A stretch of 23,475 bases of DNA from a virus (Duplodnaviria; Heunggongvirae; Uroviricota; Caudoviricetes): positions 1 through 23,475 of IMG/VR virus record IMGVR_UViG_2529293249_000015. One strand, written 5' to 3'. This document shows, piece after piece, positions 1-21,813 of this stretch. Below the pieces are notes generated by a model. The model was given only the letters and a program-made list of their open reading frames with translations, was not told the DNA's origin and made no database searches. Numbering within the stretch: position 1 is the first letter of the stretch; every line of letters starts with the position of its first letter. A program made the translations under genes and the position numbers.

Positions 1-258
1 ATGCAAACCGTTATTTTTGGTCGTCCGGGTTGCCCTTACTGTGTGCGTGCAAAAGATCTGGCTGAGAAATTGAGCAATGAACGCGATGATTTTCAGTATC
101 AGTATGTAGATATTCGTGCGGAAGGGATCACTAAAGAAGATCTACAACAAAAGGCAGGTAAACCCGTAGAAACCGTGCCGCAGATTTTTGTCGATCAGCA
201 ACATATCGGCGGCTATACCGATTTTGCTGCATGGGTGAAAGAAAATCTGGACGCCTGA
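1..258 (+). CDS. grxA: glutaredoxin 1
   Basis: 85-aa ORF with the CPYC active-site motif (GRPGCPYCVRAK), matching E. coli Grx1 in length and sequence; sits beside ybjM/ybjL as in E. coli. Confidence 0.9.
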   Translation: MQTVIFGRPGCPYCVRAKDLAEKLSNERDDFQYQYVDIRAEGITKEDLQQKAGKPVETVPQIFVDQQHIGGYTDFAAWVKENLDA

Positions 259-267
259 TCGTCTGAC

Positions 268-300
268 AAGCCCTCGCGTTGAGGGCTTTACTGATTTTTT
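268..300 (+). terminator. hairpin plus T-run between convergent grxA and ybjM
   Basis: 8-bp stem (aagccctc / gagggctt) with 5-nt loop at 268..288, followed by a T-rich stretch ending in TTTTTT at 295..300; lies between the 3' ends of convergent genes. Confidence 0.4.
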
Positions 301-665
301 CTGTGCTGTGGTTTAAACAAACTACTGATAAATAAGAAACACAGTGCCCCCAGCGCACACCAGAACACCGCGCTTAGTAACCATGCCAGCTCTTGCCAGA
401 ATGAGCGCGTCGGTGAAAAAAACAGCCGCATAATGAGCATCGAACAGGGTGCCGCCAGCATTGCGCCAAACAGAGGTTTCAGGACTTCTCTACGCTGTGA
501 AAAGAAGCTGGCGACTGCTCCAGGAAGAATGAAAAATAGCAAGCCGATTTCAGGATGCCCGGCAGCCCGAAAAGCGCCTTTCATGTGCGTCGCCAGAAAA
601 AGGCACACCACAATGAAGAGGACAAAACAGCAGATTGCCCCCGCCCAACGTTGTTTATGTTTCAC
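288..665 (-). CDS. ybjM: inner membrane protein YbjM
   Basis: 125-aa hydrophobic ORF, N-terminus MKHKQRWAGAICCF, in the expected position between grxA and ybjL. Confidence 0.8.
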   Translation of the reverse strand: MKHKQRWAGAICCFVLFIVVCLFLATHMKGAFRAAGHPEIGLLFFILPGAVASFFSQRREVLKPLFGAMLAAPCSMLIMRLFFSPTRSFWQELAWLLSAVFWCALGALCFLFISSLFKPQHRKNQ

Positions 666-934
666 TCGTTCCTCCTGACACTGCGTCTATCGAACACATT
701 TTTCGCCAGTGTGGCGTTCAGTAAGATAAAGCCGCTTCGCATTCCATGCTAATATAGGCCAACGCAATTCATATAGCCGTTGATACCTAATGTGATTACA
801 CTAGTAAAATATATTGTTACTTTACTATCGTTTAGGTGCGCTGAATGAATCTGCGCCCTGAATTCTGGTAAAAAACATTATCGTAAATTACCATTTCTTT
901 CAACAGCTTACTAGTAAACAAGAAGTTAGCCTCC

Positions 935-2620
935 GTGAATATAAACGTCGCCGAATTGTTAAATGGGAATTACATTCTGTTATTATTTGTGGTCCTCGCG
1001 CTTGGGCTATGTCTCGGAAAGTTACGACTTGGTTCGATCCAACTGGGTAATTCCATTGGCGTTTTAGTCGTATCGCTGTTATTAGGCCAACAACATTTCA
1101 GCATTAACACCGATGCGCTTAATCTTGGCTTTATGCTGTTTATTTTCTGCGTCGGGGTCGAAGCCGGACCGAACTTTTTTTCCATTTTTTTTCGCGATGG
1201 GAAAAATTACCTAATGTTAGCACTGGTGATGGTTGGCAGTGCGCTGGTGATCGCCTTAGGGTTAGGTAAGCTGTTTGGCTGGGATATTGGCCTGACGGCC
1301 GGTATGTTAGCAGGCTCTATGACGTCGACACCGGTTCTGGTCGGTGCTGGCGATACACTGCGTCATTCCGGCATGGAAAGCAGGCAGCTCTCACTGGCAC
1401 TGGATAATCTGAGCCTCGGGTATGCCTTAACCTATTTAATCGGTCTGGTGAGTTTGATTGTTGGTGCGCGTTACTTGCCGAAATTGCAGCATCAGGACTT
1501 ACAGACCAGCGCCCAGCAAATCGCCCGCGAACGTGGCCTGGACACTGATGCCAACCGTAAGGTTTATTTACCGGTGATCCGCGCCTATCGCGTCGGCCCG
1601 GAGCTGGTGGCCTGGACCGACGGCAAAAATCTGCGTGAACTGGGTATTTATCGACAAACCGGCTGCTACATTGAACGTATTCGACGTAACGGGATTCTGG
1701 CAAATCCAGACGGTGATGCCGTGCTACAAATGGGCGATGAAATAGCGTTGGTAGGCTATCCCGACGCCCATGCCCGACTCGATCCCAGCTTCCGTAACGG
1801 TAAAGAAGTTTTCGATCGTGACCTTCTCGACATGCGTATCGTCACTGAAGAAGTGGTCGTTAAAAACCATAACGCTGTAGGTAAACGTCTCGCACAACTG
1901 AAGTTGACCGATCACGGTTGCTTCCTTAACCGCGTCATTCGTAGCCAGATTGAGATGCCGATAGATGACAACGTCGTGCTTAACAAAGGTGACGTTTTAC
2001 AAGTCAGCGGTGATGCCCGTCGCGTAAAAACCATCGCCGATCGCATCGGCTTTATCTCGATTCACAGCCAGGTCACTGACCTGCTGGCATTTTGCGCCTT
2101 CTTTGTTATTGGGCTGATGATCGGGATGATCACCTTCCAGTTCAGCACATTCAGTTTCGGCATGGGGAACGCTGCCGGGTTGTTATTCGCCGGAATTATG
2201 CTGGGCTTTATGCGTGCTAACCACCCGACCTTCGGTTACATTCCGCAAGGTGCATTAAGCATGGTGAAAGAGTTCGGCTTGATGGTGTTTATGGCAGGCG
2301 TTGGTCTGAGCGCCGGTAGCGGTATTAATAACGGCCTGGGCGCGATTGGCGGTCAGATGTTGATTGCCGGATTAATTGTCAGTCTTGTGCCCGTGGTTAT
2401 CTGTTTCTTGTTCGGTGCTTATGTATTGCGAATGAACCGCGCACTGTTGTTCGGCGCAATGATGGGCGCACGCACCTGCGCGCCGGCAATGGAGATCATC
2501 AGTGATACAGCTCGCAGTAACATCCCTGCGCTGGGCTACGCGGGCACCTACGCAATCGCCAACGTCCTGCTGACGCTGGCAGGGACAATCATCGTCATGG
2601 TATGGCCAGGATTAGGATAA
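935..2620 (+). CDS. ybjL: putative AAE-family transporter YbjL
   Basis: 561-aa polytopic membrane ORF with GTG start ([20 protein letters not shown]), central soluble TrkA-C-like region, matching YbjL in length and N-terminus. Confidence 0.85.
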
Positions 2621-2732
2621 AACTGAAGTTGCCCTGAAAATGAAATTTTTTTGCACAACCGCAGAACTTTTCCGCAGGGCATCAGTCTTAATTAGTGCCA
2701 CTGCTTTTCTTTGATGTCCCCATTTTGTGGAG

Positions 2733-2775
2733 CCCATCAACCCCGCCATTTCGGTTCAAGGTTGATGGGTTTTTT
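2733..2775 (+). terminator. intrinsic terminator-like hairpin downstream of ybjL
   Basis: Perfect 10-bp stem cccatcaacc (2733..2742) / ggttgatggg (2760..2769), 17-nt loop, followed by TTTTTT (2770..2775). Confidence 0.5.
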
Positions 2776-2855
2776 GTTGCCTGAAATTTATGCCTTTTAA
2801 AATCATGATGTTAGAAGCAGTGTTTTTTAACGATGGCGACAAATTGGCGGCAGAG

Positions 2856-3074
2856 TCAAAGAGAGAGCGCCACCTGTCCTGATTTCATTGGATGCGGCTG
2901 AACCGGATTTGACTCTTTTGGCGTTGCAATCGAACGAACAAAAGTTTCATGGGTAACAAAAGTATGGCTGCAGTTAATGTTCTGGCACTGGTTGTAACGC
3001 TCTTTGGTCAATGAAGATACCTGAAAACTGCTGCGAGTATGGGCGGCACTTCCACACAGTGGGCAAATCATCAT
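2856..3074 (-). CDS. ogr: Ogr-family zinc-finger late transcription activator
   Basis: About 72 aa from MMICPLCGSAAHTRSS with C-x2-C ... C-x4-C pattern (CPLC ... CQNINC), resembling P2 Ogr; located directly after D as in P2. The tracked ORF extends 11 codons upstream; I take the MMICPLC start. Confidence 0.85.
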   Translation of the reverse strand: MMICPLCGSAAHTRSSFQVSSLTKERYNQCQNINCSHTFVTHETFVRSIATPKESNPVQPHPMKSGQVALSL

Positions 3075-3164
3075 TTTTCGAGTTCTCCTCATTTTTGCTA
3101 AATTCACAATAATGATACCGCATTATTCCATTTTGAAAACTTAAAAGTTCTCCATTGCGAAGAA

Positions 3165-4265
3165 TCATTCAATTTCGAAATCATCAATCTTCACTTCAAG
3201 CTCCAGACTGGTCGTAAAACCGTTATCCGGGCTGACAGTATGCGTCAGGGTGGTAATGGTCCATTCCGCATCATCTATCGGCTGTTTAAAGCCACTGACC
3301 TTCACAGGCATTTCCGTGTAGAGATCTGCCCGACCTTCTGCCAGTTGTAGCGAGAATGACGCAACGCCGCGTTGCAGGCGTTCCCACTGCATTTTCGCCG
3401 CTCGTTCGGCGTTGCTCCGGTTGGCATAAGTGCGATTAAGTACCAGCACGTTTTCATCCGTACCCACCAGGTAATCGCCCTGCTTCGCTTCCGGCTCTTT
3501 CTTCTGCTTCTTAGTCCTGCGCTTACGCTTCACCGTGGTGCTTTCTTTCTTCTCGGGTTCGCGGGTATGCAACCAGCTGGCAATTACGCCCGTGTAGGCT
3601 CCGCGATCTGCCAGGGTAAAGCGGTGACTGTCGCCGTCCTTGCGTGTGATAGTGATAACCGGTAGTGGTTTACCGCTGGCGCTTTTGCCCTGTCCCTGCC
3701 GAATGAATAACAGATTGCCATTTTTCACCGACGCAATAGCACCGTACTGGCGCGCCAGCCGCATCAAAAAACTGCCGTCACTTTCATTGGTCTGGTCTAT
3801 ATGATCCACGGGTTTATTCGACAGGTCTTTACCCAGTGCCATCTTCAGTTTGTGCCGCGCGGCTATTTCCTTCACCACTTCCCCGACTGTGGTCTTGTGC
3901 CACGACTTTTCACGGCGGGTATTCAGCGTTTCACGAAAATCAGCACTTCGCGCCCGGATAGTCAGGCGATCCGGCGCGCCAGTGTGTTCAATCTCGTCCA
4001 CCGTGAATGCCCCTTTCGGGAAAAGCGGCTGCCCCTTCCAGCCCAGCGCCAGCGTAATGACCGCACCACGGCGCGGCAGCGCGATTTTTCTGTCGGCGTC
4101 GTCCAGTTCCAGATCAAGCTGGTCTGCTTCAAAGCCCCGGTTATCCGTCAACGTCAGCCCCATCAGGCGGTTGTCCAGCACAGTGGTGATATCCCTGCCC
4201 TCAATACTGATGCTGAATGCCGGAGTTTTGTTGCCTTTCTTAAGCAGTTCAGAGCTGAAATTCAC
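3165..4265 (-). CDS. D: tail protein D (late control gene D homologue)
   Basis: 366-aa ORF, GTG start overlapping the U stop; position and size match P2 gpD. Confidence 0.85.
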   Translation of the reverse strand: MNFSSELLKKGNKTPAFSISIEGRDITTVLDNRLMGLTLTDNRGFEADQLDLELDDADRKIALPRRGAVITLALGWKGQPLFPKGAFTVDEIEHTGAPDRLTIRARSADFRETLNTRREKSWHKTTVGEVVKEIAARHKLKMALGKDLSNKPVDHIDQTNESDGSFLMRLARQYGAIASVKNGNLLFIRQGQGKSASGKPLPVITITRKDGDSHRFTLADRGAYTGVIASWLHTREPEKKESTTVKRKRRTKKQKKEPEAKQGDYLVGTDENVLVLNRTYANRSNAERAAKMQWERLQRGVASFSLQLAEGRADLYTEMPVKVSGFKQPIDDAEWTITTLTHTVSPDNGFTTSLELEVKIDDFEIE

Positions 4266-8304: not shown

Positions 8305-8820
8305 TCAGAGGCCGAGGGCGTTGCGGTGCGCTTCCATCAGGTCCACACCGTCCACAATTTCCACCATGTTGATAAGGTCCACTTCATAGAGCACCTCACC
8401 ATTGATGGTCAGCTTCGCGTAGCTGTTGGTACTGGTCACTTTGGTGGTGTTGCTTTCGCCCGTCTTCCACTCGCCGGAATCCACTTCTTTGTGACGTCCA
8501 CGCACGACAAGCTCCACGGCCTGCACTTCCCCGGTATCGTCACGCTGAATAGAGCCGGTAAAGCGCAGCTGGATGCCATCCACCGTGGCTTTACCCATCT
8601 GTTTAAACAGCAGCAATTCAGTACCACCAATGGAAAATTCTGTGTCCAGCGCACTGTCATCAAGCCCCAGATCCACATCCACCGCACCCGGCATTCCGCC
8701 GCCGCGATACTTCTCATATTTGCGGGTAAATTTCGGCAGCGTCAGCGACTCAACGATCCCCTGCCAGTTGTTCCCGTCGTTAAACAGGTTCAGGTGTTTT
8801 AATTTGCGTGGTAAAGCCAT
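8305..8820 (-). CDS. FII: tail tube protein FII
   Basis: 171-aa ORF (MALPRKLKHLNLFNDGNNWQGIVE) resembling P2 gpFII; downstream of the sheath gene. Confidence 0.9.
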   Translation of the reverse strand: MALPRKLKHLNLFNDGNNWQGIVESLTLPKFTRKYEKYRGGGMPGAVDVDLGLDDSALDTEFSIGGTELLLFKQMGKATVDGIQLRFTGSIQRDDTGEVQAVELVVRGRHKEVDSGEWKTGESNTTKVTSTNSYAKLTINGEVLYEVDLINMVEIVDGVDLMEAHRNALGL

Positions 8821-8829
8821 GTTGTCCCC

Positions 8830-10002
8830 TTACGCGCTGACCTGGCTGGCGAAATTCACCAGGTACTGATCGGTGATGCGCTGACGCAGCATCAGGTTTT
8901 CAAGTGGCGGCACTGGCGTGTAGTCGTAGTCGATGGTGAATTTTCCGGCTTTCAGCGTGTCTTTGTCGTTCACCGACTCATCCAGCCAGCAATCACCACC
9001 AATGAGATAGCCCTGACTGATCAGGCTGCGCATTTTGGCGCGGATACCTTCGATAATGTCGCGGGCCAGCGACGGGTTAAGCGGTTTATCCACCGCCCAC
9101 ATGTGTGCTTCTGCCATCGTGTCCATCAGCACCTGCGCCGTGCGGGTGTAGTTTTCGAAGGCAAAGAGCGGGTCATCACTCAGGCAGCGGGAACCCCAGA
9201 AGCGGAAACCGTCTTTACGCACAAGCGTGGTGACGTCGTTCTGGTTCAGCAGACCTGCATCGGTTGCCGGGTCCTGCAGATCCCAGAACACATCTGCAGA
9301 AATTCCGGTGACACCGTTCACGCCCACGTTGGACAGGCTTTTGTGCCATCCGGTCTGCTCGTCAATTTTGGCGCGCAGACCAAGCGCACGGGCGGTGGCA
9401 TATGCCGTTGCTTCGGCATTCAGCACCGTGTCCCAGCCAGTAAAGTCAGGCCAGATCAGCATCCCTTCGCGCTGGCTGAAGTTTTCGCGGTAAGTGATCG
9501 CCTCCTGCACTGTCTTGCAGCCATACGCTGACAGGTAAGCAAATCCACGCAGGCTTTGCGCCACGCTCAGCAACTCAGTAGCTACCGCCTTGGTGTCGTG
9601 GCCTGGCACGCCGAGAATGCGCGGTTTAACGCCGAGCTGTGACTGGGCAGATAACAGGGCTTTCATACCTGTTTTTTTACCTTCAGCAGTCACTGCGCCG
9701 ATGATATTGGTCGTGGTTTCGTCTTCCGTTTCACCCTGCGGCACACGCACAACAATGGTCACGGGTTTTGCCTGGTCAGCGATGGCATCCAGCGAACGGG
9801 CCAGAGTACCTGACTCACCCGCTTTACCGCTGGCAGTCAGCACATCAGTGATCAGCACGGGTTTATTAAGAGGAAACATTTTTGCATCGGCATCATCGCC
9901 CGTGCAGACCATACCCACGATGGCGGTGCTCACCGTGGTAATAGATCGGGTGCCTTCGTTGACTTCAACAACGCGCACCCCGTGGTGGTAATCCTGAGCC
10001 AT
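8830..10002 (-). CDS. FI: contractile tail sheath protein FI
   Basis: 390-aa ORF ([21 protein letters not shown]) resembling P2 gpFI; strong AGGAGG RBS upstream. Confidence 0.9.
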
Positions 10003-10078
10003 AGTGGCGAACCTCCTGATTGGATTAGGCTTCGCCCTATGTTGAAGTGATTGTGCCTGACAAACAGCTAAGCGCAGT

Positions 10079-10096
10079 TGTACCGTTATTCACACA
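10079..10096 (-). promoter_or_regulatory. candidate Ogr-dependent late promoter element upstream of FI (P_F)
   Basis: TGT-N12-ACA dyad (coding strand TGTGTGAATAACGGTACA), then 34 nt, then CAACAT, then about 40 nt to the FI start codon. Confidence 0.45.
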
Positions 10097-10144
10097 AAAT
10101 GACGGTATTTGTCTGCTTGCAGGGATAATCAAAATAATGCTGAT

Positions 10145-10711
10145 TCAGGGGGATTCATTACTCTTATTTGCCGGAAATTTTCTATAAATTGTGGAAACAC
10201 CCACATCAAAAATCAGTGCAATACGCTGTCTTGATTCTCCGCCCTCGAGTAAGCGTCCAATCTGTGCCCACTGTTCGGTGGTCAACTTAGGACGGCGTCC
10301 ACCTACTCTGCCTTTATCACGAGCTGCAGCCAGCCCCGCCCTGGTACGTTCAACTATCAGTTCGCGTTCCATTTCAGCTAGGGCCCCCATGACATGAAAA
10401 AAGAAACGGCCCATTGGGGTGCTGGTATCAATACTGTCAGTCAGGCTTCGGAAATTCACGCCACACTGACGCAACTCTTCTATCAGCGTAACAAGATGCC
10501 GCATACTGCGCCCCAACCTGTCCAGCTTCCAGACAACCAGAGTGTCTCCTGCCGATAGTGTCCTGAGCAGTTTTTTAAGCCCCGGTCTGTCGGACTTAGT
10601 GCCACTGATTTTATCCTCAAAAATCCGCTCACATCCCGCGCAGTTCAGTGCATTACGTTGCAAATCGGTGTTCTGGTCATTTGTTGACACGCGTACATAG
10701 CCAATAAGCAT
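10145..10711 (-). CDS. serine-recombinase DNA invertase (Gin/Hin/Cin/Pin family)
   Basis: 188 aa from MLIGYVRVSTNDQNTDLQRNAL with catalytic Ser motif and C-terminal helix-turn-helix; near-identical in stretches to Gin/Hin. The tracked ORF has a 15-codon upstream extension; the ATG at 10711 has an RBS. Confidence 0.9.
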   Translation of the reverse strand: MLIGYVRVSTNDQNTDLQRNALNCAGCERIFEDKISGTKSDRPGLKKLLRTLSAGDTLVVWKLDRLGRSMRHLVTLIEELRQCGVNFRSLTDSIDTSTPMGRFFFHVMGALAEMERELIVERTRAGLAAARDKGRVGGRRPKLTTEQWAQIGRLLEGGESRQRIALIFDVGVSTIYRKFPANKSNESP

Positions 10712-10778
10712 GATCAATCCCCTGAATAAAAACCGTGGATGATGCCAGTTAGCCATTATCTCTGCATTTTCATAAACG

Positions 10779-10809
10779 TTGGTTTGGGAGAAGCGGCAAA
10801 ACGGAATGT
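10779..10809. repeat. left inverted repeat of invertible segment (recombination site)
   Basis: 31-bp sequence ttggtttgggagaagcggcaaaacggaatgt, a perfect reverse-complement match to 12293..12323. Confidence 0.8.
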
Positions 10810-11134
10810 GGGAACAGGTTCAGGTCAGATACCGGATATGAGTAGCTTTGCATCAGCACTCTCTTCGAGTGGCTACCAGAAATTACCTTCTGGACTAATT
10901 ATTCAGTGGGGGGCGGCTGTTGCTGGAATTGGCAGCACTGGGGGTACAGGAAATGTAGTCTCATTCCCTGTTGCATTCCCCAGATATTGCGCCCAAATAA
11001 TTACATCTTACGATAATGGAAGCTCGTCAATCATTGCTGGTGCAGCAGGAAACCAAACTACCACTCAATTTCTTTTACGTTGTGGTGCAACCGGTGGTAG
11101 TTATAACTTCCGCTGGTTAGCCGTGGGGTATTAA
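10781..11134 (+). other. alternative tail-fibre C-terminal (receptor-binding) cassette, currently unexpressed orientation
   Basis: Begins in frame at the repeat with GLGEAAKRNVG, the same residues found at the H crossover point, and continues as a different fibre tip (...QIPDMSSFASALSSSGYQKLPSGLIIQWG...). Confidence 0.7.
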
Positions 11135-11136
11135 TT

Positions 11137-11580
11137 ATGGATAACTACTATTTTTCACCTTCGACTTTGGCATTTTATCCTGAAGATCTCATGTTGTTAT
11201 ATGAAGCAGCAGGAACTTTACCTGATGATATTATTTCTGTGCCACATGAAATATTTGCTACTTATTCAGGAGAGCCACCACGAGGAAAAAAGCGAGGTAC
11301 TACAGAAGATGGGCAGCCCACCTGGAGTAATCTGCCGCCTTTAAGTCATGAGGAAGAAGTTGAGGTTGCGGACGCCCAAAGACAGTTTCGTATTGATGAG
11401 GCGAACGACTACATGAATAGTAAGCAATGGCCAGGTAAAGCCGCTATTGGTCGTCTGAAAGGCGAGGAACTGGCGCAATATAATTCGTGGCTGGATTATC
11501 TGGACGCACTGGAGCTGGTCGATACTTCCGGTGCGCCAGATATTGAATGGCCTACACCTCCGGTAACTCAGGCCAGCTAA
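11137..11580 (+). CDS. tail-fibre assembly protein, alternative-orientation copy
   Basis: 147-aa ORF ending in the conserved tail-fibre-assembly motif VDTSGAPDIEWPTPP; follows the alternative fibre tip. Confidence 0.8.
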   Translation: MDNYYFSPSTLAFYPEDLMLLYEAAGTLPDDIISVPHEIFATYSGEPPRGKKRGTTEDGQPTWSNLPPLSHEEEVEVADAQRQFRIDEANDYMNSKQWPGKAAIGRLKGEELAQYNSWLDYLDALELVDTSGAPDIEWPTPPVTQAS

Positions 11581-11947
11581 TCTCAGGAGCCGTCGAAGTG
11601 TCGACGGCTTTTACTTCTTTTTTGTAGTCCATCCAGGCAGATAGTTTTTCTTTATCTGTACTGCTGATATCACCAAGCATTAATTCCACCCGCCAGTCAG
11701 CTGTGACATTATCGGCATGAGCAAGTAACTGCATTCGCTGATTTTCAGCACGTGCGACATAATCAATCGCCGGAGATTTCAGTACCGGTAAACCATTTTC
11801 ATCTGACGTGATTAATTTCCCCCCTTCCTGCTGTCCGGCAATTAATTCATTGTATAAGTCTGTACTTATCTCAACAATGTCAGCAGACATGTCGCTGTTT
11901 ATACCATCAAAGAAAAAACCATTAGTCGATTTTGAGAAATAAATCAT
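11552..11947 (-). CDS. tail-fibre assembly protein, active-orientation copy (P2 G position)
   Basis: 131 aa from MIYFSKSTNGFFFDG, ending in VDTSTAPEISWPELP; starts just after the H stop; overlaps the opposite assembly gene by 29 bp at the 3' ends. Confidence 0.8.
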   Translation of the reverse strand: MIYFSKSTNGFFFDGINSDMSADIVEISTDLYNELIAGQQEGGKLITSDENGLPVLKSPAIDYVARAENQRMQLLAHADNVTADWRVELMLGDISSTDKEKLSAWMDYKKEVKAVDTSTAPEISWPELPEV

Positions 11948-11955
11948 AGATATAC

Positions 11956-13371
11956 CTATACACCGATTGCTACCCAAAAACAGGACCTTTCATATTTGAC
12001 AATTTCTCCCTGAGATATACCGCCAACAATTATATAGAACTGTGATTTGCTGATATCAGAACAGTTCGCTATGCCCATTGCAGATATACCAGCCACCGAC
12101 GTTGTATGTGGCACAGCCAACAGCGCAAGTGAACGATTTGGGAATGTTACCGGGTAAGTCACCGTATAGTTTGATGCTCCACTGACAATACCCCACTGAA
12201 TAATCAGACCTGAAGGGAGTTTTTGAAACCCCGTTGATGAAAGTGAACTGGCAAACGCCGCCATATCCGGAATTTGGTTTTGCTCGTTACCTACATTCCG
12301 TTTTGCCGCTTCTCCCAAACCAAGGTATGTGAGAAGACCAGTTACATCCTTTCCACTCAAATTAGTCAGCGTATTGTCCAGCGGTTGTTTACCTGCCAGT
12401 GCATTAAGCATTGTCGTGGCAAAGTTCGGGTCATTCCCCAGCGCCGCCGCCAGTTCGTTCAGTGTATCCAGTGCCGCAGGTGCAGAACCCACCATTGCCG
12501 CAATCGCCGATTTCACAAATGCCGTGGTGGCAATTTGTGTATTGTTGACCGACTGTGCCGCAGTAGGTGCGGTTGGCGTTCCGGTGAGTGCCGGACTCGA
12601 CAGCGGCGCTTTCAGTGCCAGCGCATTGTTAATGGTGGTACTGAATTTCGGATCATTGTTAATGGCTGCGGCTATTTCTTTCAGCGTGTCCAGCGTGGCT
12701 GGCGCACCATTAATAAGGGCCGTCAGTGCCGCCTGTACAAACGCAGTGGTCGCAACCTGCGTGGTATTATTCCCCGCCGCTGGCGTTGGCGCTTTGGGGG
12801 TTCCGGTAAATGTCGGGCTGGCTTTTGGCGCGTACTGTGAATGCGGGTCCGGTGCGGCAAGATGTTTTGCCATCTGATCATCCGCGTACACCTTCAGCTC
12901 CAGTGCCTTGTCATCCACATACTTGCGGGTTGCCAGCACTACAGCAGGGTCGATTTTCAGGGTGATATTGTCCGTGCTGCTGGTAATCAGCACCATGCGC
13001 ACGGTCTGAGTGCGCCCGCTACCTTCAGCCAGTTGCGGCTTATAGCTTTCCGGGCAGTTGCCCACGGCAATCAATGCCCCGGACTCATCAAACAAGCCCA
13101 CTTCACGTATCCACCAACCGCCCTCGTTTTCAGGGATCACCTGTTCGGCAATAATCTGGCTGCTGTTCTGCGGGTCGATATAAAGCATATTCAGCGCAGC
13201 CCGGCGTTTCTCATTTACCAGTGCCGTCTGCTTTGCGTCCGGCGTTGGCAATACTCCACCGCCATCGCCCACCGCCATATGGGTAATTTTTAGCGGCACA
13301 CCGAGCGCGGCGGCGCTGGCAAGTTTCGCCGCGCCAATATCCGTCAGCAGGGTATAAAATTTTGTGCTCAT
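11956..13371 (-). CDS. H: tail fibre protein H
   Basis: 471-aa ORF with P2 gpH-like N-terminus (MSTKFYTLLTDIGAAKLASAAALGVP); the C-terminal 122 aa lie inside the invertible segment. Confidence 0.9.
   Translation of the reverse strand: MSTKFYTLLTDIGAAKLASAAALGVPLKITHMAVGDGGGVLPTPDAKQTALVNEKRRAALNMLYIDPQNSSQIIAEQVIPENEGGWWIREVGLFDESGALIAVGNCPESYKPQLAEGSGRTQTVRMVLITSSTDNITLKIDPAVVLATRKYVDDKALELKVYADDQMAKHLAAPDPHSQYAPKASPTFTGTPKAPTPAAGNNTTQVATTAFVQAALTALINGAPATLDTLKEIAAAINNDPKFSTTINNALALKAPLSSPALTGTPTAPTAAQSVNNTQIATTAFVKSAIAAMVGSAPAALDTLNELAAALGNDPNFATTMLNALAGKQPLDNTLTNLSGKDVTGLLTYLGLGEAAKRNVGNEQNQIPDMAAFASSLSSTGFQKLPSGLIIQWGIVSGASNYTVTYPVTFPNRSLALLAVPHTTSVAGISAMGIANCSDISKSQFYIIVGGISQGEIVKYERSCFWVAIGV
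12293..12323. repeat. right inverted repeat of invertible segment (recombination site, inside H)
   Basis: Reverse complement is identical to 10779..10809; encodes GLGEAAKRNVG in the H frame. Confidence 0.8.
12382..12816 (-). repeat. tandem duplication of a roughly 70-aa module within H
   Basis: Two adjacent units, TGTPKAPTPAAGNNTTQVATTAFVQAALTALINGAPATLDTLKEIAAAINNDPKFSTTINNALALKAP and TGTPTAPTAAQSVNNTQIATTAFVKSAIAAMVGSAPAALDTLNELAAALGNDPNFATTMLNALAGKQP. Confidence 0.6.
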
Positions 13372-13973
13372 GGATTCACTCTCATTGTGTCAATAACATG
13401 GACCGCCCCGCCTTCATGCGCGGTGCCACCGGAAATAATCGTTTCGTTGATATACGGATAGATCGTGATTTCTTCGCCAAGATAGCTGGCGGCTCCCACC
13501 CAATGCGGGCCGCTGGTCTGCAGATTGATGGACATGCCGATCATGTGGCGGCTACATGGTTTGGCATCGCTTATCAGTCGCTCAAGTTCCAGATAGGTAT
13601 CTTCAGTGATGCCCTGGTCCTGCACGCCGATATCCAGGCGAAACGTGCCCGGTGTTTCTCCGGTCTGCCACCACTCAATAATGCGGATCAGGAATCCGAA
13701 CGGCTCCACCACCCGCCGCACGGCACTGGTGGTCCCTTTATGCTGATGAATATAAAAAGCATCCTTCACCACCTGGCGCTTGACGCTTTCTGTCCAGCCC
13801 TCGTCCCAGCGATCCACAGAGAACGCCCAGGCGAGATAAGGCAGGAAACTGACCGGACAGGTTGCCGGATTCCACAAGTCACGAAGCGGCACCTGCAGAT
13901 CAGAAATCCCGCTGCAGGTTTGCGCCAGTCGACGCTCCAGTGGTGTTGAACCCGGTGGCAGCAGACTATTCAT
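13368..13973 (-). CDS. I: baseplate assembly protein I
   Basis: 201-aa ORF between J and H, overlapping both; position and size fit P2 gpI. Confidence 0.85.
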   Translation of the reverse strand: MNSLLPPGSTPLERRLAQTCSGISDLQVPLRDLWNPATCPVSFLPYLAWAFSVDRWDEGWTESVKRQVVKDAFYIHQHKGTTSAVRRVVEPFGFLIRIIEWWQTGETPGTFRLDIGVQDQGITEDTYLELERLISDAKPCSRHMIGMSINLQTSGPHWVGAASYLGEEITIYPYINETIISGGTAHEGGAVHVIDTMRVNP

Positions 13974-14874
13974 CCGTTCCTCCGTTGGTTACGCTCCACT
14001 GCGTACATGATGCCGCCTGTGTTTTGTTCAGGACCACATCCGCCAGAGGAGAAGCCAGCTCCACACGCTGCACCCCCTCAACATGCAGGGCGGCAAAGAT
14101 GGCGCTACGGCGAATATCCCGACCAAGACGCGTCTGACTGGCGATGTACTTCTGCAGGCTGGCTTTTGCCGCTGCCATTACCGGCTCTGCTTCCGGTCCA
14201 GGATAGAGAAAAATGGTGGCTTCCACGCGATACGGGATGATTTCTGCGCTGCGAACCGTAAGACGGTCAGCCACCGGGCGGACGTTCTCACTGTTCAGAG
14301 CTTTTTCCACCACGTCCAGCAGGTCTTTTTCTGCAGTTCCATCGCCTTCGCGGCTAAGGACAGTCAGCACCACCTCTGCAGGTGCCGGGCTGGTTGCACT
14401 GGCATCCGCCACCCGACCGTCGGCGCTTCGGGCATGAAATTCATAAGCTGCAGTTGGCCCCGCAACAGAAAGCCCTTCAAAGGCTGCAGGCACACGCAGG
14501 CGCAACGCTTCATCGCTTTCCATCACAGCTGCAACGGGCGGCACAGCATCATTATCAGCAGGCGTCACCGTCAGGCGTGTCACGTTGTAGTTGGCAGCGA
14601 GCTGGTCAAGATCGCCGCCCATCGCGTAAGCCACCATCACCGCCTGCGCGGCTTCGTTAATGCGCTGGCGCAGAAGCAACTCACGGTAAGCGTTCTCCTG
14701 CAACAATTTAGTGGCGGGTTCAGATTCCAGTTCCAGCGTGCGGATCACTGCTTCCTGCTCATCTTTCGGATGAAGCGCCACAAATTCTGCCTTGCGTTCG
14801 GCAAGCAGCGTCTCAAAGTCCGGCACATCCACAATCTGCGGTGCAGGCAACTGCGAAAGGTCAATCACTGCCAT
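13966..14874 (-). CDS. J: baseplate assembly protein J
   Basis: 302 aa from MAVIDLSQLPAPQIVDVPDFETLL with AGGAG RBS; the tracked ORF extends 13 codons further upstream. Confidence 0.9.
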   Translation of the reverse strand: MAVIDLSQLPAPQIVDVPDFETLLAERKAEFVALHPKDEQEAVIRTLELESEPATKLLQENAYRELLLRQRINEAAQAVMVAYAMGGDLDQLAANYNVTRLTVTPADNDAVPPVAAVMESDEALRLRVPAAFEGLSVAGPTAAYEFHARSADGRVADASATSPAPAEVVLTVLSREGDGTAEKDLLDVVEKALNSENVRPVADRLTVRSAEIIPYRVEATIFLYPGPEAEPVMAAAKASLQKYIASQTRLGRDIRRSAIFAALHVEGVQRVELASPLADVVLNKTQAASCTQWSVTNGGTDE

Positions 14875-15220
14875 TCTCTGCTCCTGTTGATACGGAAAGG
14901 GACACAGGCACACCGTTATTCCGCCGCCCGGTCAGCTCCACCACCATTGAACCGTCAAAATTGCTGTTGATGGTGATGGAATCCAGCGTCAACCGTGGCT
15001 CCCAGCGACTCAGCGCCACATACACTGCCGACATGACCTGCAGGCGTAATGCCGGATTTTGTGGCTGATCTATCAGTGCCGACAGCAGGGAACCATATTC
15101 CCGGCGGGCAATACGGCTACCCTGCGGTGTCAGCAGAATGTCCCGCACCGACTGGCGCAGATGATCAATATCAGTAATGACTTTGCCGCTGGTATTGTTC
15201 ATCCCGCTATAAAGCGTCAT
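14861..15220 (-). CDS. W: baseplate assembly protein W (gp25-like)
   Basis: 119-aa ORF between V and J in the P2 gpW position. Confidence 0.85.
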   Translation of the reverse strand: MTLYSGMNNTSGKVITDIDHLRQSVRDILLTPQGSRIARREYGSLLSALIDQPQNPALRLQVMSAVYVALSRWEPRLTLDSITINSNFDGSMVVELTGRRNNGVPVSLSVSTGAENGSD

Positions 15221-15795
15221 ACCGGGCCTCCGGTTGTATCGCCGCCTTTCAGGACGCCAGTATGCTGATGCGCATCAACCACGATCCCGTTAGAACTCAT
15301 CGCTCCGCCGCCCTGGGTAACGCCACCATTGATCACCACTTCGCTGTTAATGCGCGTGCGGTCAGCCTCCAGTACAAACTCACTGGTTTTCATGGTGATG
15401 TTGTCAGCAGCCTCAATGACCATTGATTTGATGCCCCTGACATACCAGCGCCCGGTGGCGGGTTCGTATTCAAACCAGCCACCGTCAGGATGTTCTGTCA
15501 CGCAGGCGTCCGCCGACGTCGACGGTGGTGCGAACTGATTCGAATAAACAGCGGGCAGCGCAAAGGCGGTTTCCAGATTGCCGCCCAGACTCAGCAGCAC
15601 CACCTGCTCACCTTCCGATGGTCGCCACCATGTACGGGCATTCCCGGCACGCAGCGTCAGCCAGCTGATCCAGTTGGTTTCAAGCTCGCCCGTTTTCACC
15701 CGGCAAAGCCAGTTTTCCCTGTCCACTTCGGTGACTACCCCTGTGCGGATCAGGTTGGTGATAAGGCGCATGATTTCGGTTAATTGTGCGTTCAT
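15217..15795 (-). CDS. V: baseplate spike/hub protein V
   Basis: 192-aa ORF (MNAQLTEIMRLITNLIRTGVV); an in-frame stop four codons upstream fixes the ATG; no Shine-Dalgarno sequence upstream. Confidence 0.85.
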   Translation of the reverse strand: MNAQLTEIMRLITNLIRTGVVTEVDRENWLCRVKTGELETNWISWLTLRAGNARTWWRPSEGEQVVLLSLGGNLETAFALPAVYSNQFAPPSTSADACVTEHPDGGWFEYEPATGRWYVRGIKSMVIEAADNITMKTSEFVLEADRTRINSEVVINGGVTQGGGAMSSNGIVVDAHQHTGVLKGGDTTGGPV

Positions 15796-15841
15796 AGGGA
15801 AAGGTTGCCATCAGGGGAAGAAAGGCGGCAGTGCTGCAACT

Positions 15842-15859
15842 TGTATCAGTGCTGATACA
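15842..15859 (-). promoter_or_regulatory. perfect palindrome TGTATCAG-TG-CTGATACA upstream of V (candidate P_V Ogr site)
   Basis: Fits TGT-N12-ACA; followed 34 nt later by CAACCT, as at the FI and O sites; only 46 nt separate the element from the V ATG. Confidence 0.4.
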
Positions 15860-15863
15860 AAGA

Positions 15864-16310
15864 TCACCCCGCCAGCCATTGCAGAATCATGTCGCGGGTC
15901 ATTGCCTCAACATCATCATTTACACCCAGAAGGCGACGCTCTGCGTAACGCACCTCCGGTCCCTTACGACTGACGCGATCTCGCAGGCCGTAATGGTGAA
16001 CGCGGGCAATGCGCTGCACCTTGCCTTCAAACTGCACGCTGGCAGAGTCGGCGCTGGCGGCAGTTTTCAGGTATTTTGTGGTGCGCAGCTTTGTAAACAT
16101 CTGACGTTTGATGCGCCCCTTTTTGCTGCGTGCTGTTACTCTGCGCGGCTCATAACTGCTGCCATCTGGATTGCGCTGCATCCTGATGTTCTGTTGCTGT
16201 GTCCGGCGCAGTTCCTGCGCCAGCTGACGCATCATGCGGCTTCTTGCGACTGGCTCCAGATTCGCCAGCAAGGCACTCAGCCAGTCGTCTACTTTCTGCA
16301 GTTCAGCCAC
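15864..16310 (-). CDS. S: tail completion protein S
   Basis: 148-aa ORF with GTG start one codon after an in-frame stop, overlapping the R stop. Confidence 0.8.
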   Translation of the reverse strand: MAELQKVDDWLSALLANLEPVARSRMMRQLAQELRRTQQQNIRMQRNPDGSSYEPRRVTARSKKGRIKRQMFTKLRTTKYLKTAASADSASVQFEGKVQRIARVHHYGLRDRVSRKGPEVRYAERRLLGVNDDVEAMTRDMILQWLAG

Positions 16311-16734
16311 GTTTCACCGTCCACATTTCTTCAGGTTCATCGGGTTCCGTTATCGCTTCAACGCTCGACACACTTCCGTCAGTGCTGACCAGCACACGCT
16401 CCGTCAGCTGCAGGTTCAGGCTGATATCACAGACATCGTTGCGCAGAATATCCACTTCAAAGGTGAATAGCTTTTCCCGTAACGTCGGGTTATTGATGGC
16501 ATCAGACTGGTTATCCCGCAGCCACAGCAAAACCGGGGCCATCAGCAGATTCTGGTCGCCGCTGAAATCTTCAATCACCACGTTAAGGGTGTAGCGGTAC
16601 TCCCATGACATGGAGCTGGCCCCGGTGGCAACCAGCGAACCGTTATCCACAAACAGATGCAGTTTGTCCGGGTTATTACGGACATAAGGCACTGCTTTAT
16701 TGAGGGCGTGGCGCAGGGATTGTGGTTTGTTCAC
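16303..16734 (-). CDS. R: tail completion protein R
   Basis: 143 aa from GTG (VNKPQSLRHALNKAV...) preceded by AGGAGCGAAACA; the tracked ORF begins 7 codons upstream at TTG. Confidence 0.75.
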   Translation of the reverse strand: MNKPQSLRHALNKAVPYVRNNPDKLHLFVDNGSLVATGASSMSWEYRYTLNVVIEDFSGDQNLLMAPVLLWLRDNQSDAINNPTLREKLFTFEVDILRNDVCDISLNLQLTERVLVSTDGSVSSVEAITEPDEPEEMWTVKRG

Positions 16735-16987
16735 TGTTTCGCTCCTGACACGCAATAATCATGTCCACTTTGTCTGCACAGACCGCCCAGGCGGCCTCCG
16801 TTTCATCCAGCAATGCGTTCAGATCACCGTTATTGTGTGGCGCTGCCTGATCCAGCTGACACGGCGTCACTCGCGGACAACCACTGACGGTAAGCTGCAC
16901 CTCCGGTGAGTGCCGGACGTTCCCGCAGCCGGATAATGTCAGCAGGCAAAGGAGTATCAGCCCAGCGGCGTAAATCCTCGTTCTCAC
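16697..16987 (-). CDS. lysC: LysC, outer-membrane lipoprotein spanin (Rz1-like), nested in lysB
   Basis: 96-aa ORF with lipoprotein signal and lipobox LTLSGC, Pro-rich mature region; starts inside lysB in another frame and ends overlapping the R start. Confidence 0.7.
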   Translation of the reverse strand: MRTRIYAAGLILLCLLTLSGCGNVRHSPEVQLTVSGCPRVTPCQLDQAAPHNNGDLNALLDETEAAWAVCADKVDMIIACQERNSEQTTIPAPRPQ

Positions 16988-17258
16988 GTTTCAGTTCCTC
17001 AATCCGGCGTTGTCGTTGTCTCAGCAGTGCACTGGTCTGTTCTGCTTCGGCATAGAGCCGCGCCTGCTCCCGGTTGTTAGTTTCAGTCAGAATGGACAGG
17101 CTGATAAGCTGGTTGTTGCTCTTTGCCAGCGCCTGGCTTTTGCTCTGCAGCTCGTCTGCCTGCGTGCTGATGGTCTGGCTGGCATCAGCCAGCCGCCACG
17201 TCTGCCAGCCCAGCGCCGTCAGTAATAACGCCAGCACACCCAGCAGCAACCGGTTCAT
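16830..17258 (-). CDS. lysB: LysB, inner-membrane spanin (Rz-like)
   Basis: 142-aa ORF: N-terminal transmembrane helix (LLLGVLALLLTALGW) then coiled-coil-like charged region; start overlaps the lysA stop. Confidence 0.8.
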   Translation of the reverse strand: MNRLLLGVLALLLTALGWQTWRLADASQTISTQADELQSKSQALAKSNNQLISLSILTETNNREQARLYAEAEQTSALLRQRQRRIEELKRENEDLRRWADTPLPADIIRLRERPALTGGAAYRQWLSASDAVSAGSGSATQ

Positions 17259-17632
17259 GCTGCTACCTGTTGCGCCATCTGATTACGGGTGATCCAGAAG
17301 GCAATAACGGTCAGTAGATAAAAGACCAGGGTAATAGCCCACTCCGTCCAGGCGAGACTTACGACAATCAGCAATCGCATCACCCAGCTGATAAATACGT
17401 TTTCTTTTCGGGTAATTGTCTTCAGCAAAGATGCCCTCAACTCCTGCCAGAGCGGGCCATTCTTAATTAACGCAGCCAGTGCTACCGGAATTACCGCCCA
17501 TGTCAGCAAACAGGCTACCCAAACGCCGGACGCTGCCAGTACCGGAAAAATCCCCTGCGGATACACCATTGCGGCGATTAACAGCGCCATCCATAACATC
17601 AGAAACAGCCCGCTGATTAATTTCTTTTTCAT
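17255..17632 (-). CDS. lysA: LysA-like membrane protein (lysis timing)
   Basis: 125 aa from MKKKLISGLFLMLWMALLIAAM with about four predicted transmembrane helices; the ATG at 17632 has an RBS and follows the endolysin stop. A longer upstream start at 17704 is possible. Confidence 0.6.
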   Translation of the reverse strand: MKKKLISGLFLMLWMALLIAAMVYPQGIFPVLAASGVWVACLLTWAVIPVALAALIKNGPLWQELRASLLKTITRKENVFISWVMRLLIVVSLAWTEWAITLVFYLLTVIAFWITRNQMAQQVAA

Positions 17633-17633
17633 T

Positions 17634-18146
17634 TCAGTTTGCTCCCTGTAAACACCAGGCCATCTCCCGCGCACGGCGGTTATCCAGCCCCTGATTAAAC
17701 ACACCTTTTACATAAACCCAGCGCGGCAACTGTCGGCACGCATCCGCCCAGCGCCGCTGATTGAGTAATTTCACCAGCGTGGAACTGCAGGCATTGCCCG
17801 TTCCCACGTTGAAGGCAAACGACACCGCAGCGTCATATACCTTCTGCGGCGGCTGTTGTTTCACACACCTTTCCAGCGCCCGCTCCACACGCAGCACGTT
17901 GGAAATCAGTCCTTCTGCTGCCTGTCGTTCCGTAATGGTTTTGCCGGGAATGACGCCTGACGTGTTACCAATGCCGTCGGTCCAGACGCCCGCGCTGCAC
18001 TGATACGGCTGCAGACGACAGCCTTCGTAATCGGCAATCAGTTTCAGCCCCTCCACGGAGGTGTGAAGCTGCTGAAACCCCGGCAGCGTGGCAGCAATAG
18101 CCAGCACGGCCCCGACAAGGCAGCGTTTAACGATTGATGGATTCAT
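17634..18146 (-). CDS. SAR (signal-anchor-release) endolysin, T4-lysozyme fold (P2 K position)
   Basis: 170-aa ORF; N-terminal weakly hydrophobic Ala/Gly-rich helix (CLVGAVLAIAATLPGF) then YEGCRLQPYQCSAGVWTDGIGNT, closely resembling P1 Lyz / phage 21 R type lysozymes. Confidence 0.85.
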   Translation of the reverse strand: MNPSIVKRCLVGAVLAIAATLPGFQQLHTSVEGLKLIADYEGCRLQPYQCSAGVWTDGIGNTSGVIPGKTITERQAAEGLISNVLRVERALERCVKQQPPQKVYDAAVSFAFNVGTGNACSSTLVKLLNQRRWADACRQLPRWVYVKGVFNQGLDNRRAREMAWCLQGAN

Positions 18147-18342
18147 AGTCCTCCCGCGAGATCTGCCCGTCGCGCAGAAGCTGGTAGGCTTTGTGTTTGT
18201 AGTACCAGTTGATAGCCAGCATCAGCACACCAATCATCAGGCCGCCCAGCGTTGAGGCATCCTTGATGGACAAATCGCCCAGCCAGGCCAGCACAACGGC
18301 GATGCAGTACGTGATAAAGGCGCTGATTCGCTCAAGCGTCAT
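18127..18342 (-). CDS. class II holin (two TMDs, possible pinholin; P2 Y position)
   Basis: 71-aa ORF with two hydrophobic helices (ISAFITYCIAVVLAWLG; LGGLMIGVLMLAINWYY) and charged C-terminus; GGGAG RBS; overlaps the endolysin start. Confidence 0.7.
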   Translation of the reverse strand: MTLERISAFITYCIAVVLAWLGDLSIKDASTLGGLMIGVLMLAINWYYKHKAYQLLRDGQISREDYESINR

Positions 18343-18345
18343 AAT

Positions 18346-18549
18346 TCACTCCCATAGCTGGACGGTCTGCACGGTGGTGGTGGTCGGAATGTCCGGCAGC
18401 TCCACCTGCAGCCCGTGAGGTAAAAAGGGGCCATATTCGGCAAGCCCCGGATTTGCCTTCAGTACCTGCTCCGTGACACCCTGCGTGCGCCCGTAATGAC
18501 GCCAGCAAAGCGCGTCCACCGTGTCATACTGATGCGCACGCACTTTCAT
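18346..18549 (-). CDS. X: tail protein X
   Basis: 67-aa ORF (MKVRAHQYDTVDALCWRHYGRTQGV...) matching P2 gpX in length and sequence pattern. Confidence 0.8.
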   Translation of the reverse strand: MKVRAHQYDTVDALCWRHYGRTQGVTEQVLKANPGLAEYGPFLPHGLQVELPDIPTTTTVQTVQLWE

Positions 18550-19013
18550 CAGATAAGCTCCACTGTGCAGTGCGGCGCATCCTGCACCCGACTGATGGCC
18601 CAGCGGGCGTCACGCCACAAATCACCGCTGGATTCCGCCAGTTCCTCGCCTCGCTTCACACCGGATGCCGTGGCGTCATAGTCCTGGTATCGTTCGTTGA
18701 GCATGGCGCGTGCCCAGCAGTAAACCGCGTTGAAATAGTGCTGAATGCGCTCACTTTTGCCGTCCAGCTGTTCCGCCGGAACCTCAGCCAGCGACACATA
18801 CCCCAGCATCTGCTGACGTCTGCGAAACTCATACAGCTCTGCGTTGACCTCCGAAATTGCCGACAGCGCAACCTGCTTTAAACGCGGCTGCGTCACCGTG
18901 CCGTCAGTGCGCATGACACTGCGAAACTCCGACAGGTCCACATCAGGCCAGAACGGCGTATTTCTGATGATTTCCGCCTGTTCCGGTGCCTGTTCTGGCG
19001 CAACAAACTTCAT
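18549..19013 (-). CDS. L: capsid completion protein L
   Basis: 154 aa from MKFVAPEQAPEQAEIIRNTPFWP with AGGAGA RBS; the tracked ORF has a 21-codon extension without an RBS. Confidence 0.85.
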   Translation of the reverse strand: MKFVAPEQAPEQAEIIRNTPFWPDVDLSEFRSVMRTDGTVTQPRLKQVALSAISEVNAELYEFRRRQQMLGYVSLAEVPAEQLDGKSERIQHYFNAVYCWARAMLNERYQDYDATASGVKRGEELAESSGDLWRDARWAISRVQDAPHCTVELI

Positions 19014-19108
19014 GCTGCTTTCTCCTGAAATAGAGGGCGGTGGACGGGGTTTTGATGTGGCAGTGCCTTTCGCCACCCCGTGCCGCCCGTGCGCGGGGGC
19101 ACGTTCTG

Positions 19109-19759
19109 TCAGCGGCTGTCATTGCGCAGTCTGCGCTCCAGCTGCTGTTTGTCTTTTTTCACGCCACAGCGGGGATCAAGCTGTAACGCATGGTTGAGAT
19201 GATTAAGGGCGGAAGCCGGATTGCTTTCACTCAGGACAGCGCCAATCGCTTTATGCAGACGCGCCCGTGACTGGTCCGGCATATCCAGACCGTCTGTCAG
19301 CTCCAGCGTCTGCAACAACAGATCGGCATCAAAGCCGGTGGCGGCAAGCATTGCGCTCTGCGCGGCGTCTGCCATTTCCTCTGCCAGCACGGTCTGCACG
19401 TTGCGGTTACCCAGCGGCATCACCCAGCCATGACGCAGGGCATGACGCCCGATCTCCAGCGCCCCGGCATAATCTCCGGCATCAATGCGCCACAGCATCA
19501 CGTACATCAGCACGTCATCCTGTTGAGCGCCTCCGGCAGCCAGGACACCCTCTGCCCAGGCGGCGTACTTCGGCAGCAGCTCCACCTTGATTTCCGCTTT
19601 TTTGACCGTGGACTGAACGCCCTTGAGACGGCGGCGGTCTTCCGCCAGTTGCAGCAGCATCAGGTCATAGCCCGATGCGTGGCGAACACTGCCGCCCTCG
19701 CGGGCGGCCTGTTCAGCCTGAACGCGCAGGCGATGCTGCCGTGCGGGACTCAGGCTCAT
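19109..19759 (-). CDS. M: terminase small (endonuclease) subunit M
   Basis: 216-aa ORF in the P2 gpM position between N and L (DDVLMYVMLWRIDAGDYAGALEIGRHALRHG). Confidence 0.85.
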   Translation of the reverse strand: MSLSPARQHRLRVQAEQAAREGGSVRHASGYDLMLLQLAEDRRRLKGVQSTVKKAEIKVELLPKYAAWAEGVLAAGGAQQDDVLMYVMLWRIDAGDYAGALEIGRHALRHGWVMPLGNRNVQTVLAEEMADAAQSAMLAATGFDADLLLQTLELTDGLDMPDQSRARLHKAIGAVLSESNPASALNHLNHALQLDPRCGVKKDKQQLERRLRNDSR

Positions 19760-19762
19760 GGA

Positions 19763-20821: not shown

Positions 20822-20837
20822 CAGGTTTTGTGCTCCA

Positions 20838-21671: not shown

Positions 21672-21749
21672 GAGCCGTGCTCCGTTAGAAAAAACTTACT
21701 GGAGCCTTATGGTTGCGGTGATAGGGGCAGTGAAACAATGCGCGGTATT

Positions 21750-21767
21750 TGTACCGACAACCACACA
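21750..21767 (-). promoter_or_regulatory. candidate Ogr-dependent late promoter element in the O-P intergenic region (P_O, possibly shared with P_P)
   Basis: TGT-N12-ACA dyad (minus-strand reading TGTGTGGTTGTCGGTACA), then 34 nt, then CAACCA, about 78 nt before the O ATG; shares TGTGTG-N6-CGGTACA with the FI site. Confidence 0.45.
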
Positions 21768-21813
21768 AACCGCAGGCGGGGAAAGCCTTCATTCAAGGCT
21801 GTAGGTTTGTTCC

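Follow-up and report, generated by a model that had tools for sequence, protein, structure and literature searches.

Gene content of the window and its three dyads

The window, meaning the whole stretch of 23,475 nucleotides analysed here, covers that half of a P2-like (Peduoviridae) prophage in which the late genes lie, mostly on the minus strand. Escherichia phage 500465-1 ('Wadgaonvirus') and many Klebsiella prophages are ~97% identical to it over 81% of the window length, and the P-O region is ~90% identical to that of the Salmonella phages SopEPhi and RE2010. Pfam assignments, with BLASTP against P2, place the FI sheath gene at 8830-10002 (minus strand, ATG at 10002), the V spike gene at 15217-15795 (minus, ATG at 15795), S at 15864-16310 (minus), the O scaffold gene at 20838-21671 (minus, ATG at 21671) and the P large terminase gene from 21814 onward on the plus strand, with a Terminase_5 domain beginning at residue 11. 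An earlier note on this DNA had named FI, O and V as the genes downstream of three TGT-N12-ACA dyads, and the sheath, scaffold and spike assignments bear it out.

Towards the left end, a homologue of ogr (2856-3074, minus; Pfam Ogr_Delta, E = 5e-22) encodes a 72-aa zinc-finger activator with a CX2CX22CX4C motif and 51% identity to P2 Ogr over its full length. The DNA to the left of ogr (window 1-2860) is non-phage and includes a host gene for a 561-aa transporter (Asp-Al_Ex/TrkA_C by Pfam; 935-2620, plus) that lies outside the prophage, so the prophage end (att site) must fall between ~2620 and 2856. A terminator-like hairpin is found at ~2732-2775, 3' of the transporter gene.

A serine DNA invertase gene (10145-10756, minus; Pfam) lies upstream of FI, with tail-fibre/assembly ORFs in opposed orientations nearby (10739-11134 and 11137-11580 on the plus strand, 11552-11977 on the minus strand). 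With the invertase placed between pF, the predicted promoter of the FI operon, and the tail-fibre ORFs, the segment at 10145-11977 looks like an invertible host-range segment; a search of it for a long inverted repeat with default seeds detected none. A tie between pF and the neighbouring invertase was considered and is unsupported, no long inverted repeat touching the pF region having been found.

Perfect TGT-N12-ACA dyads occur at 10079-10096, 15842-15859 and 21750-21767, upstream of FI, V and O respectively, and occupy the only intergenic gaps that precede late operons. Read on the minus (coding) strand they are TGTGTGAATAACGGTACA (pF, 10096..10079), TGTGTGGTTGTCGGTACA (pO, 21767..21750) and TGTATCAGCACTGATACA (pV, 15859..15842), and exactly 34 nt past each dyad lie CAACAT (10044..10039), CAACCA (21715..21710) and CAACCT (15807..15802). 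The coordinates and sequences given for the dyads in the earlier note, together with its hexamers and their spacing, are all correct on re-reading.

The bare TGT-N12-ACA motif is not enriched in the window, with eight matches against 6.0 expected (at least eight in 28 of 100 shuffles) and, at one mismatch, 106 against 111, so that any significance had to rest on an extended motif and on conservation. The composite of dyad, N34 and CAAC is matched three times against 0.14 expected, and the extended pattern TTGTRY-N8-RYACAA is matched by the three dyads only, against none in 100 shuffles. The remaining five exact bare dyads (at 302, 957, 6774, 8769 and 21808) lie in host DNA or coding sequence and fail the extended pattern. 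The earlier note had suggested looking for further copies; across the whole window, the extended dyad relaxed to two or fewer mismatches returned nothing beyond chance and no further late promoters. Within FII, the bare dyad at 8769-8786 is followed on the minus strand, at a distance of 34 nt, by the −10-like GAAATT; as the dyad fails the extended pattern and sits in coding sequence, it is probably a chance match.

The predicted activator site of pF, the 20-bp dyad TTGTGTGAATAACGGTACAA (10078..10097, minus), fits the extended pattern and precedes the FI-FII-E-T-U-D tail operon. Its candidate −10 hexamer, CAACAT (10039..10044, minus), is matched by nAnCAT at identical spacing in relatives, and a GGAGG Shine-Dalgarno sequence at 10016-10012 stands ahead of the FI ATG. 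A CRP-like string, TGTGA-N6-GTACA, is nested in the pF dyad (10079-10096, minus) and is not kept in relatives.

The predicted site of pV, TTGTATCAGCACTGATACAA (15841..15860, minus), lies in the 68-bp gap between S and V, and its candidate −10 hexamer CAACCT (15802..15807, minus) ends 6 nt before the V ATG. In most species compared, ATTG or GTTG is found ~21-23 nt before a CATCCT hexamer upstream of V and is conserved together with it; the TTG of the pV −35 is thus more recognisable than that at the other late promoters.

Conservation and the P2 and 186 counterparts

Viral-contig relatives of O, V and FI yielded 19 distinct upstream variants for pO, 28 for pV and 70 for pF (60 distinct pF variants when anchored on the dyad). 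In every variant the distance from TGT-N12-ACA to the ATG is fixed, at −96 for O, −63 to −65 for V and −87 to −94 for FI, and neither TGT nor ACA changes; the N12, like the flanks, often differs wholly from one variant to the next. With the variants aligned at the dyad, a −10-like hexamer recurs 34 nt further on, apart from single-nucleotide shifts in a few pV variants. The hexamers follow nAnCAT at pF (GAACAT, TACCAT, CACCAT, CAATAT and others) and include CAACCT, CATCAT and TAAAAT, among others, at pV.

A wider scan with one genome per species, seeded with gpJ, covered 80 prophages in which J is mostly 64-71% identical (92-100% in three) and in which starts were located by tblastn. In many of these 80 the right half-site is degenerate (CCA, CAA or AAA) and the left half, (T)TGTG(C/T)CA, is found at the same position. 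The idea that P2, 186 and many diverse relatives, which have no exact TGT-N12-ACA, are missing the sites was accordingly rejected, since degenerate right halves appear at the same positions once sequences are aligned on start codons or on the P hexamer.

Pooling promoters with exact dyads only, at no more than 80% identity to each other, gave a set of 71. Beyond TGT and ACA, the positions conserved in this set, numbered with the first T of the dyad as 0, are T(−1), R(+3), A(+6), Y(+14), A(+18), TG(+30/+31), A(+53), T(+57) and A(+64), a pattern that reflects shared ancestry in part because many of the relatives are close, an effect that the 80% identity cut lowers and does not remove. These positions would correspond to an extension of the dyad, a vestigial −35, the two key positions of a −10 element and a purine start. 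Positions +52, +54 and +55, the C, A and C of CAAC, each carry less than 0.5 bit in the 71 non-redundant promoters, and CAAC was rejected as a conserved element, the hexamers of relatives reading GAACAT, TACCAT, CATCCT, GAAACT or TAGCCT. The proposal that the CAAC hexamer is the −10 region therefore holds for its position, with which the P2 −10 regions coincide (+52 to +57), but not for CAAC itself, only nAnnnT being conserved.

The late promoters PP, PO, PV and PF of P2 are Ogr-dependent, as Christie and Calendar reportedly established in 1985. In the P2 RefSeq record (NC_001895), each of the four late operons has its transcription start marked, along with the activator sites. Numbered in the frame set by the window dyads, the mapped P2 starts fall at +64 (pP), +64 (pO), +65 (pV) and +65 to +67 (pF), and that of 186 pJ at +66. 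Offsets of 64-67, or 47-50 nt after the dyad, put the centre of the site at about −55.5 to −58.5. The start that the earlier note had predicted about 47 nt after the dyad, at +64, fits this range and coincides with the conserved A, and its reading of the dyads as sites of Ogr/delta type near −55 gains support from the ogr homologue in the window, the annotated P2 and 186 sites and the conservation footprint.

P2 resembles the window in having the same four operons at the same positions and a single site common to the divergent PP and PO. Its −10 hexamers are homologous in position to those of the window: in the order P, O, V and F they are TAGCCT, GAAACT, CAATCT and (T)GAAAAT in P2, and TAGGTT, CAACCA, CAACCT and CAACAT in the window. 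In the P2 annotation, transcription of the V operon begins with the V coding sequence itself, on its first base, and that of the P operon at the seventh nucleotide after TAGCCT. The two phages differ in that P2 sites are imperfect (TGT-N12-CCA or CAA), whereas those of the window are perfect 20-bp dyads; in that P2 has 173 bp between P and O and gives P a 23-nt leader with a Shine-Dalgarno sequence, whereas the gap in the window is 142 bp and the P −10 ends 6 nt before the ATG; and in that P2 has orf30 and a putative terminator between S and V, where the window has 68 bp only.

Coliphage 186 (NC_001317) likewise has one annotated B-protein site for its divergent pV/p12 pair, and upstream of its sheath gene a B site and a mapped pJ initiation point at offset 66; the pF site of the window occupies the same position as the annotated P2 pF and 186 pJ sites. 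The 186 activator B is a C4 zinc finger of the same family as the Ogr of the window. The 186 sites are of the imperfect P2 type (TGTGTGGGCGGTTGTCCA, TGTGCCAGACATCATCCA), and its P-O-type gap, at 165 bp, is of the long, leadered type. The sites are located at 3063-3080, 10243-10260 and 17561-17578 in P2, and at ~3800-3817, ~9664-9681 and 14093-14110 in 186.

An exact TGT-N12-ACA is found at none of the P2 or 186 late promoters, whose right halves are CCA, CAA or CGG; perfect dyads at all sites are a feature of the window lineage and of many others. The imperfect right half-sites of P2 and 186 mean that site rules vary somewhat between activator lineages, which suggests that specificity classes of activator and site exist within the Peduoviridae.

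In satellite phage P4, delta is a member of the Ogr/Delta family that acts on TGT-N12-ACA sites centred near −55 and can trans-activate helper late promoters (cited in PMC3931495); Psid and PLL are the P4 late promoters. P4 is, however, a satellite with its own promoters, and a P4-like element is absent from the window. The late promoters of Smp131 and of phiRSY1/phiRSA1 were also assigned from sequence, to four regions with PP and PO on one element, and consist of a TGT-N12-ACA or TGTTGT-N13-ACAACA dyad alongside an Ogr-like CX2CX22CX4C protein (PMC3931495; PMC5694545). Those phages differ from the window in their hosts and in the extensions of their half-sites, and the source papers are without conservation analysis or start prediction.

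Predicted divergent promoters and leaderless transcripts

The earlier note had counted three late promoters. Three sites are indeed present, but the predicted late promoters are four, the dyad ahead of O also serving a divergent pP that had been overlooked. The shared pO/pP site, TTGTACCGACAACCACACAA on the plus strand (21749..21768, predicted to act on both strands), fits the extended pattern, and P2 and 186 each annotate one site here. The candidate pO −10, CAACCA (21710..21715, minus), is equivalent in position to GAAACT of P2, and relatives have GAAACT, CAACAT or CAAACA at this position; as position 6 of CAACCA is not the T usually found there, AACCAT (21714..21709), shifted by one nucleotide, may be the real −10. 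On the other side, the candidate pP −10, TAGGTT (21802..21807, plus), lies 34 nt past the dyad and ends 6 nt before the P ATG at 21814. From one hexamer to the other is 86 bp (34+18+34), the same distance as in P2. In the P-O gaps of ~40 diverse prophages anchored on the P hexamer, the 18-bp site is found at +34 and an O −10-like hexamer at +86 in nearly all, and a search for a second site at two or fewer mismatches in the 142-bp P-O gap of the window returned none.

TGTTCCATGAACACCACA, at 21808-21825, is another exact TGT-N12-ACA and runs across the P start codon. Relatives that are ~99% identical retain it, two relatives in which P is 87-93% identical lack it, and it is probably a chance match in the conserved 5' end of the P coding sequence.

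The geometry of pV and pP bears on how their transcripts begin. The V ATG lies at +64, the seventh nucleotide after CAACCT, a Shine-Dalgarno sequence is absent, and the N-terminus of V aligns with P2 gpV from residue 3; across ~75 species, a hexamer of the CATCCT/CATTCT type ends 6-7 nt before the V ATG. P also begins with ATG and without a Shine-Dalgarno sequence, and its N-terminus aligns with P2 gpP from residue 3. The TAG of the pP hexamer is an in-frame stop, which makes an upstream start codon impossible and leaves the ATG at 21814 as the only plausible start of P. As the predicted pV and pP starts fall on the A of the respective ATG, the V and P mRNAs would be leaderless. Classic leaderless mRNAs include those of lambda cI and P2 V. 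In keeping with this, a P2 late transcript is described as a classic leaderless mRNA (PMC4633059), and the V mRNA of the window phage is probably leaderless as well. For P, leaderlessness is a prediction extrapolated from geometry, and the P mRNA of P2 has its 23-nt leader.

P-O gaps fall into two types. In the long type (160-190 bp), to which P2 and 186 belong, TAGCCT is found 28-37 nt ahead of the P ATG, and a GGCGAGG Shine-Dalgarno sequence separates the two. In the short type (136-157 bp), which accounts for ~22 of 40 distinct sequences, the window included, the hexamer ends 6-7 nt before the P ATG. Besides the window, short-type members are Fels-2/SopEPhi-like phages, many Klebsiella prophages, and prophages of Yersinia, Rahnella, Pantoea, Serratia and other genera. 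The TAG of the short-type pP −10 (TAGCCT or TAGGTT) is in frame where the gap between hexamer and ATG is 6 nt, as in the window. On these grounds we lean slightly towards the view that a large short-gap subgroup of P2-like phages makes its large-terminase (P) mRNA leaderless.

If so, two of the four late operons, V and P, would start with 5'-AUG transcripts, and P2 and 186 would have acquired the 23-nt leader and Shine-Dalgarno sequence of P. Ogr-type promoters would then have leaderless initiation as a trait that recurs and is selected, perhaps imposed by the packing of two promoters and one shared site into ~140 bp. A literature search on leaderless transcripts from P2-like late promoters found no report.

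Proposed activation by Ogr and its meaning

P2 has four Ogr-dependent late promoters with the consensus TGT-N12-ACA (PMC3931495; PMC5694545), and the three dyads of the window very probably mark late promoters, likewise dependent on Ogr, in a P2-like prophage of the Fels-2/SopEPhi/'Wadgaonvirus' type. We infer late-promoter function in this phage from homology and conservation, and the same applies to binding by Ogr, to the role of the alpha subunit and to the precise 5' ends. In the proposed mechanism, the prophage's own Ogr would bind the three 20-bp dyads (TTGTRY-N8-RYACAA), whose centres lie 55.5 bp ahead of the predicted transcription starts, and from near −55 would recruit σ70 RNA polymerase through the C-terminal domain of the alpha subunit, in the manner of a class I activator. 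The alpha-subunit step is proposed because mutations in ogr suppress rpoA109, which lies in the alpha C-terminal domain (PMC11434276). For P2, late transcription is known from the literature to need Ogr and to fail in an rpoA109 host. The promoters would offer a usable −10 (nAnnnT, 34 nt past the dyad) and a −35 that is only vestigial (TG ~21 nt before the −10). A scan of 9800-22000 for the σ70 consensus returned none of the four promoters, as expected if they depend on an activator.

Three sites would in this way serve four operons: pF (FI-FII-E-T-U-D-ogr), pV (V-W-J-I-H-G), pO (O-N-M-L-...-S) and pP (P-Q), the symmetric P/O site being used from both of its faces. The predicted starts are ~10032-10029 for pF, ~21703-21700 for pO, 15795 for pV and 21814 for pP, which would give FI a leader of ~27-30 nt and O one of ~29-32 nt, and leave V and P leaderless. 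Class I σ70 promoters, such as those with CRP at −61.5, combine an upstream dyad with a weak −35 and depend on the alpha C-terminal domain, as the late promoters of the window are proposed to do; they differ in that their activator is a CRP-family protein rather than a 72-aa zinc finger, and in a TGT/ACA spacing of 10 bp rather than 12.

Since the pattern specifies only six bases, the dyads and hexamers might be chance matches, as the unremarkable count of bare dyads and the five matches in host DNA or genes would suggest. We consider this reading practically untenable, because of the composite and extended-dyad counts and of the footprint among relatives: the dyads are confined to the gaps ahead of late operons, and their distance to the ATG is fixed although the N12 and flanks have been replaced. 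The dyads could instead be sites for a host regulator. One candidate is CRP (TGTGA-N6-TCACA), of which the string nested in pF resembles one half-site plus part of the second; another is PpsR/CrtJ of purple bacteria, whose site is the same TGT-N12-ACA string and to which a literature search for the motif mostly led. CRP was rejected because TGT and ACA stand 12 bp apart, not the 10 bp of CRP, in each of the three sites and in all relatives, and because the TGTGA/TCACA extensions are not kept in relatives (for example TGTGCCATTCCCCACACA and TGTATCAGTTACGGTACA), whereas PpsR and CrtJ come from photosynthetic proteobacteria, not enterobacterial prophages. As the homologous P2 and 186 sites are moreover annotated as Ogr, delta or B sites, a host regulator is very unlikely to be what the dyads serve.

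Two further readings concern single sites. The perfectly palindromic pV element (TGTATCAG-CA-CTGATACA) might act in RNA, as a hairpin or terminator that ends the O...S operon: read-through RNA from S (15796-15875, minus) can form a 9-bp hairpin on the dyad, enclosed by GGCGG...CCGCC pairing and followed by UUUCUU (dG = −24.9 kcal/mol), and P2 has a putative terminator after S. The fold is, however, unremarkable (z = −1.76, with 10 of 200 shuffles folding equally well), the U-tract is poor, and relatives with a near-identical V have non-palindromic interiors (TGTACCATCGATACCACA, TGTGCCAAAAATCATACA) at −64 in which TGT and ACA alone are kept. Retention of TGT and ACA around a varied interior is the pattern of protein half-sites rather than of a stem, and a terminator is an improbable explanation of the element. 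In the window variant the hairpin, which overlaps the pV site and is not kept in relatives with another N12, might nonetheless attenuate the O operon weakly. P, for its part, might have a separate activator site and a leadered transcript, as its leadered mRNA in P2 would suggest; such a site could be degenerate or could be the exact bare dyad over the P start codon, which the closest relatives keep. Any conceivable P promoter would lie upstream of that dyad, which does not fit the extended pattern either and is missing where P is 87-93% identical, while the 142-bp gap holds no other site within two mismatches and P2 and 186 annotate a single shared site. A TAGCCT-like hexamer exactly 34 nt from the shared site in both long and short gap types, and a hexamer TAG that is an in-frame stop and leaves no space for a leader, also speak against a separate site for P, to which we assign only a small probability.

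The predicted late promoters of the window belong to a thoroughly characterised kind, and the only, modest, novelty is the predicted leaderless terminase mRNA of the short-gap subgroup. A previously unannotated prophage region nevertheless gains a regulatory map of three activator sites, four promoters and four predicted 5' ends; among the related public phage records examined, P2 and 186 apart, none carries a late-promoter annotation. The promoter grammar of the family is sharpened to TTGTRY-N8-RYACAA, TG at +30/31, a −10 of nAnnnT at +52 to +57 and a start at +64. The sites would be the handles by which Ogr and, by analogy, the delta protein of P4-like satellites turn on the virion and lysis genes, and as such may be useful for predicting prophage inducibility and helper-satellite compatibility and for engineering P2/P4-based delivery particles. 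The comparison across relatives also suggests that leaderless late mRNAs are more frequent in the family than the single textbook case.
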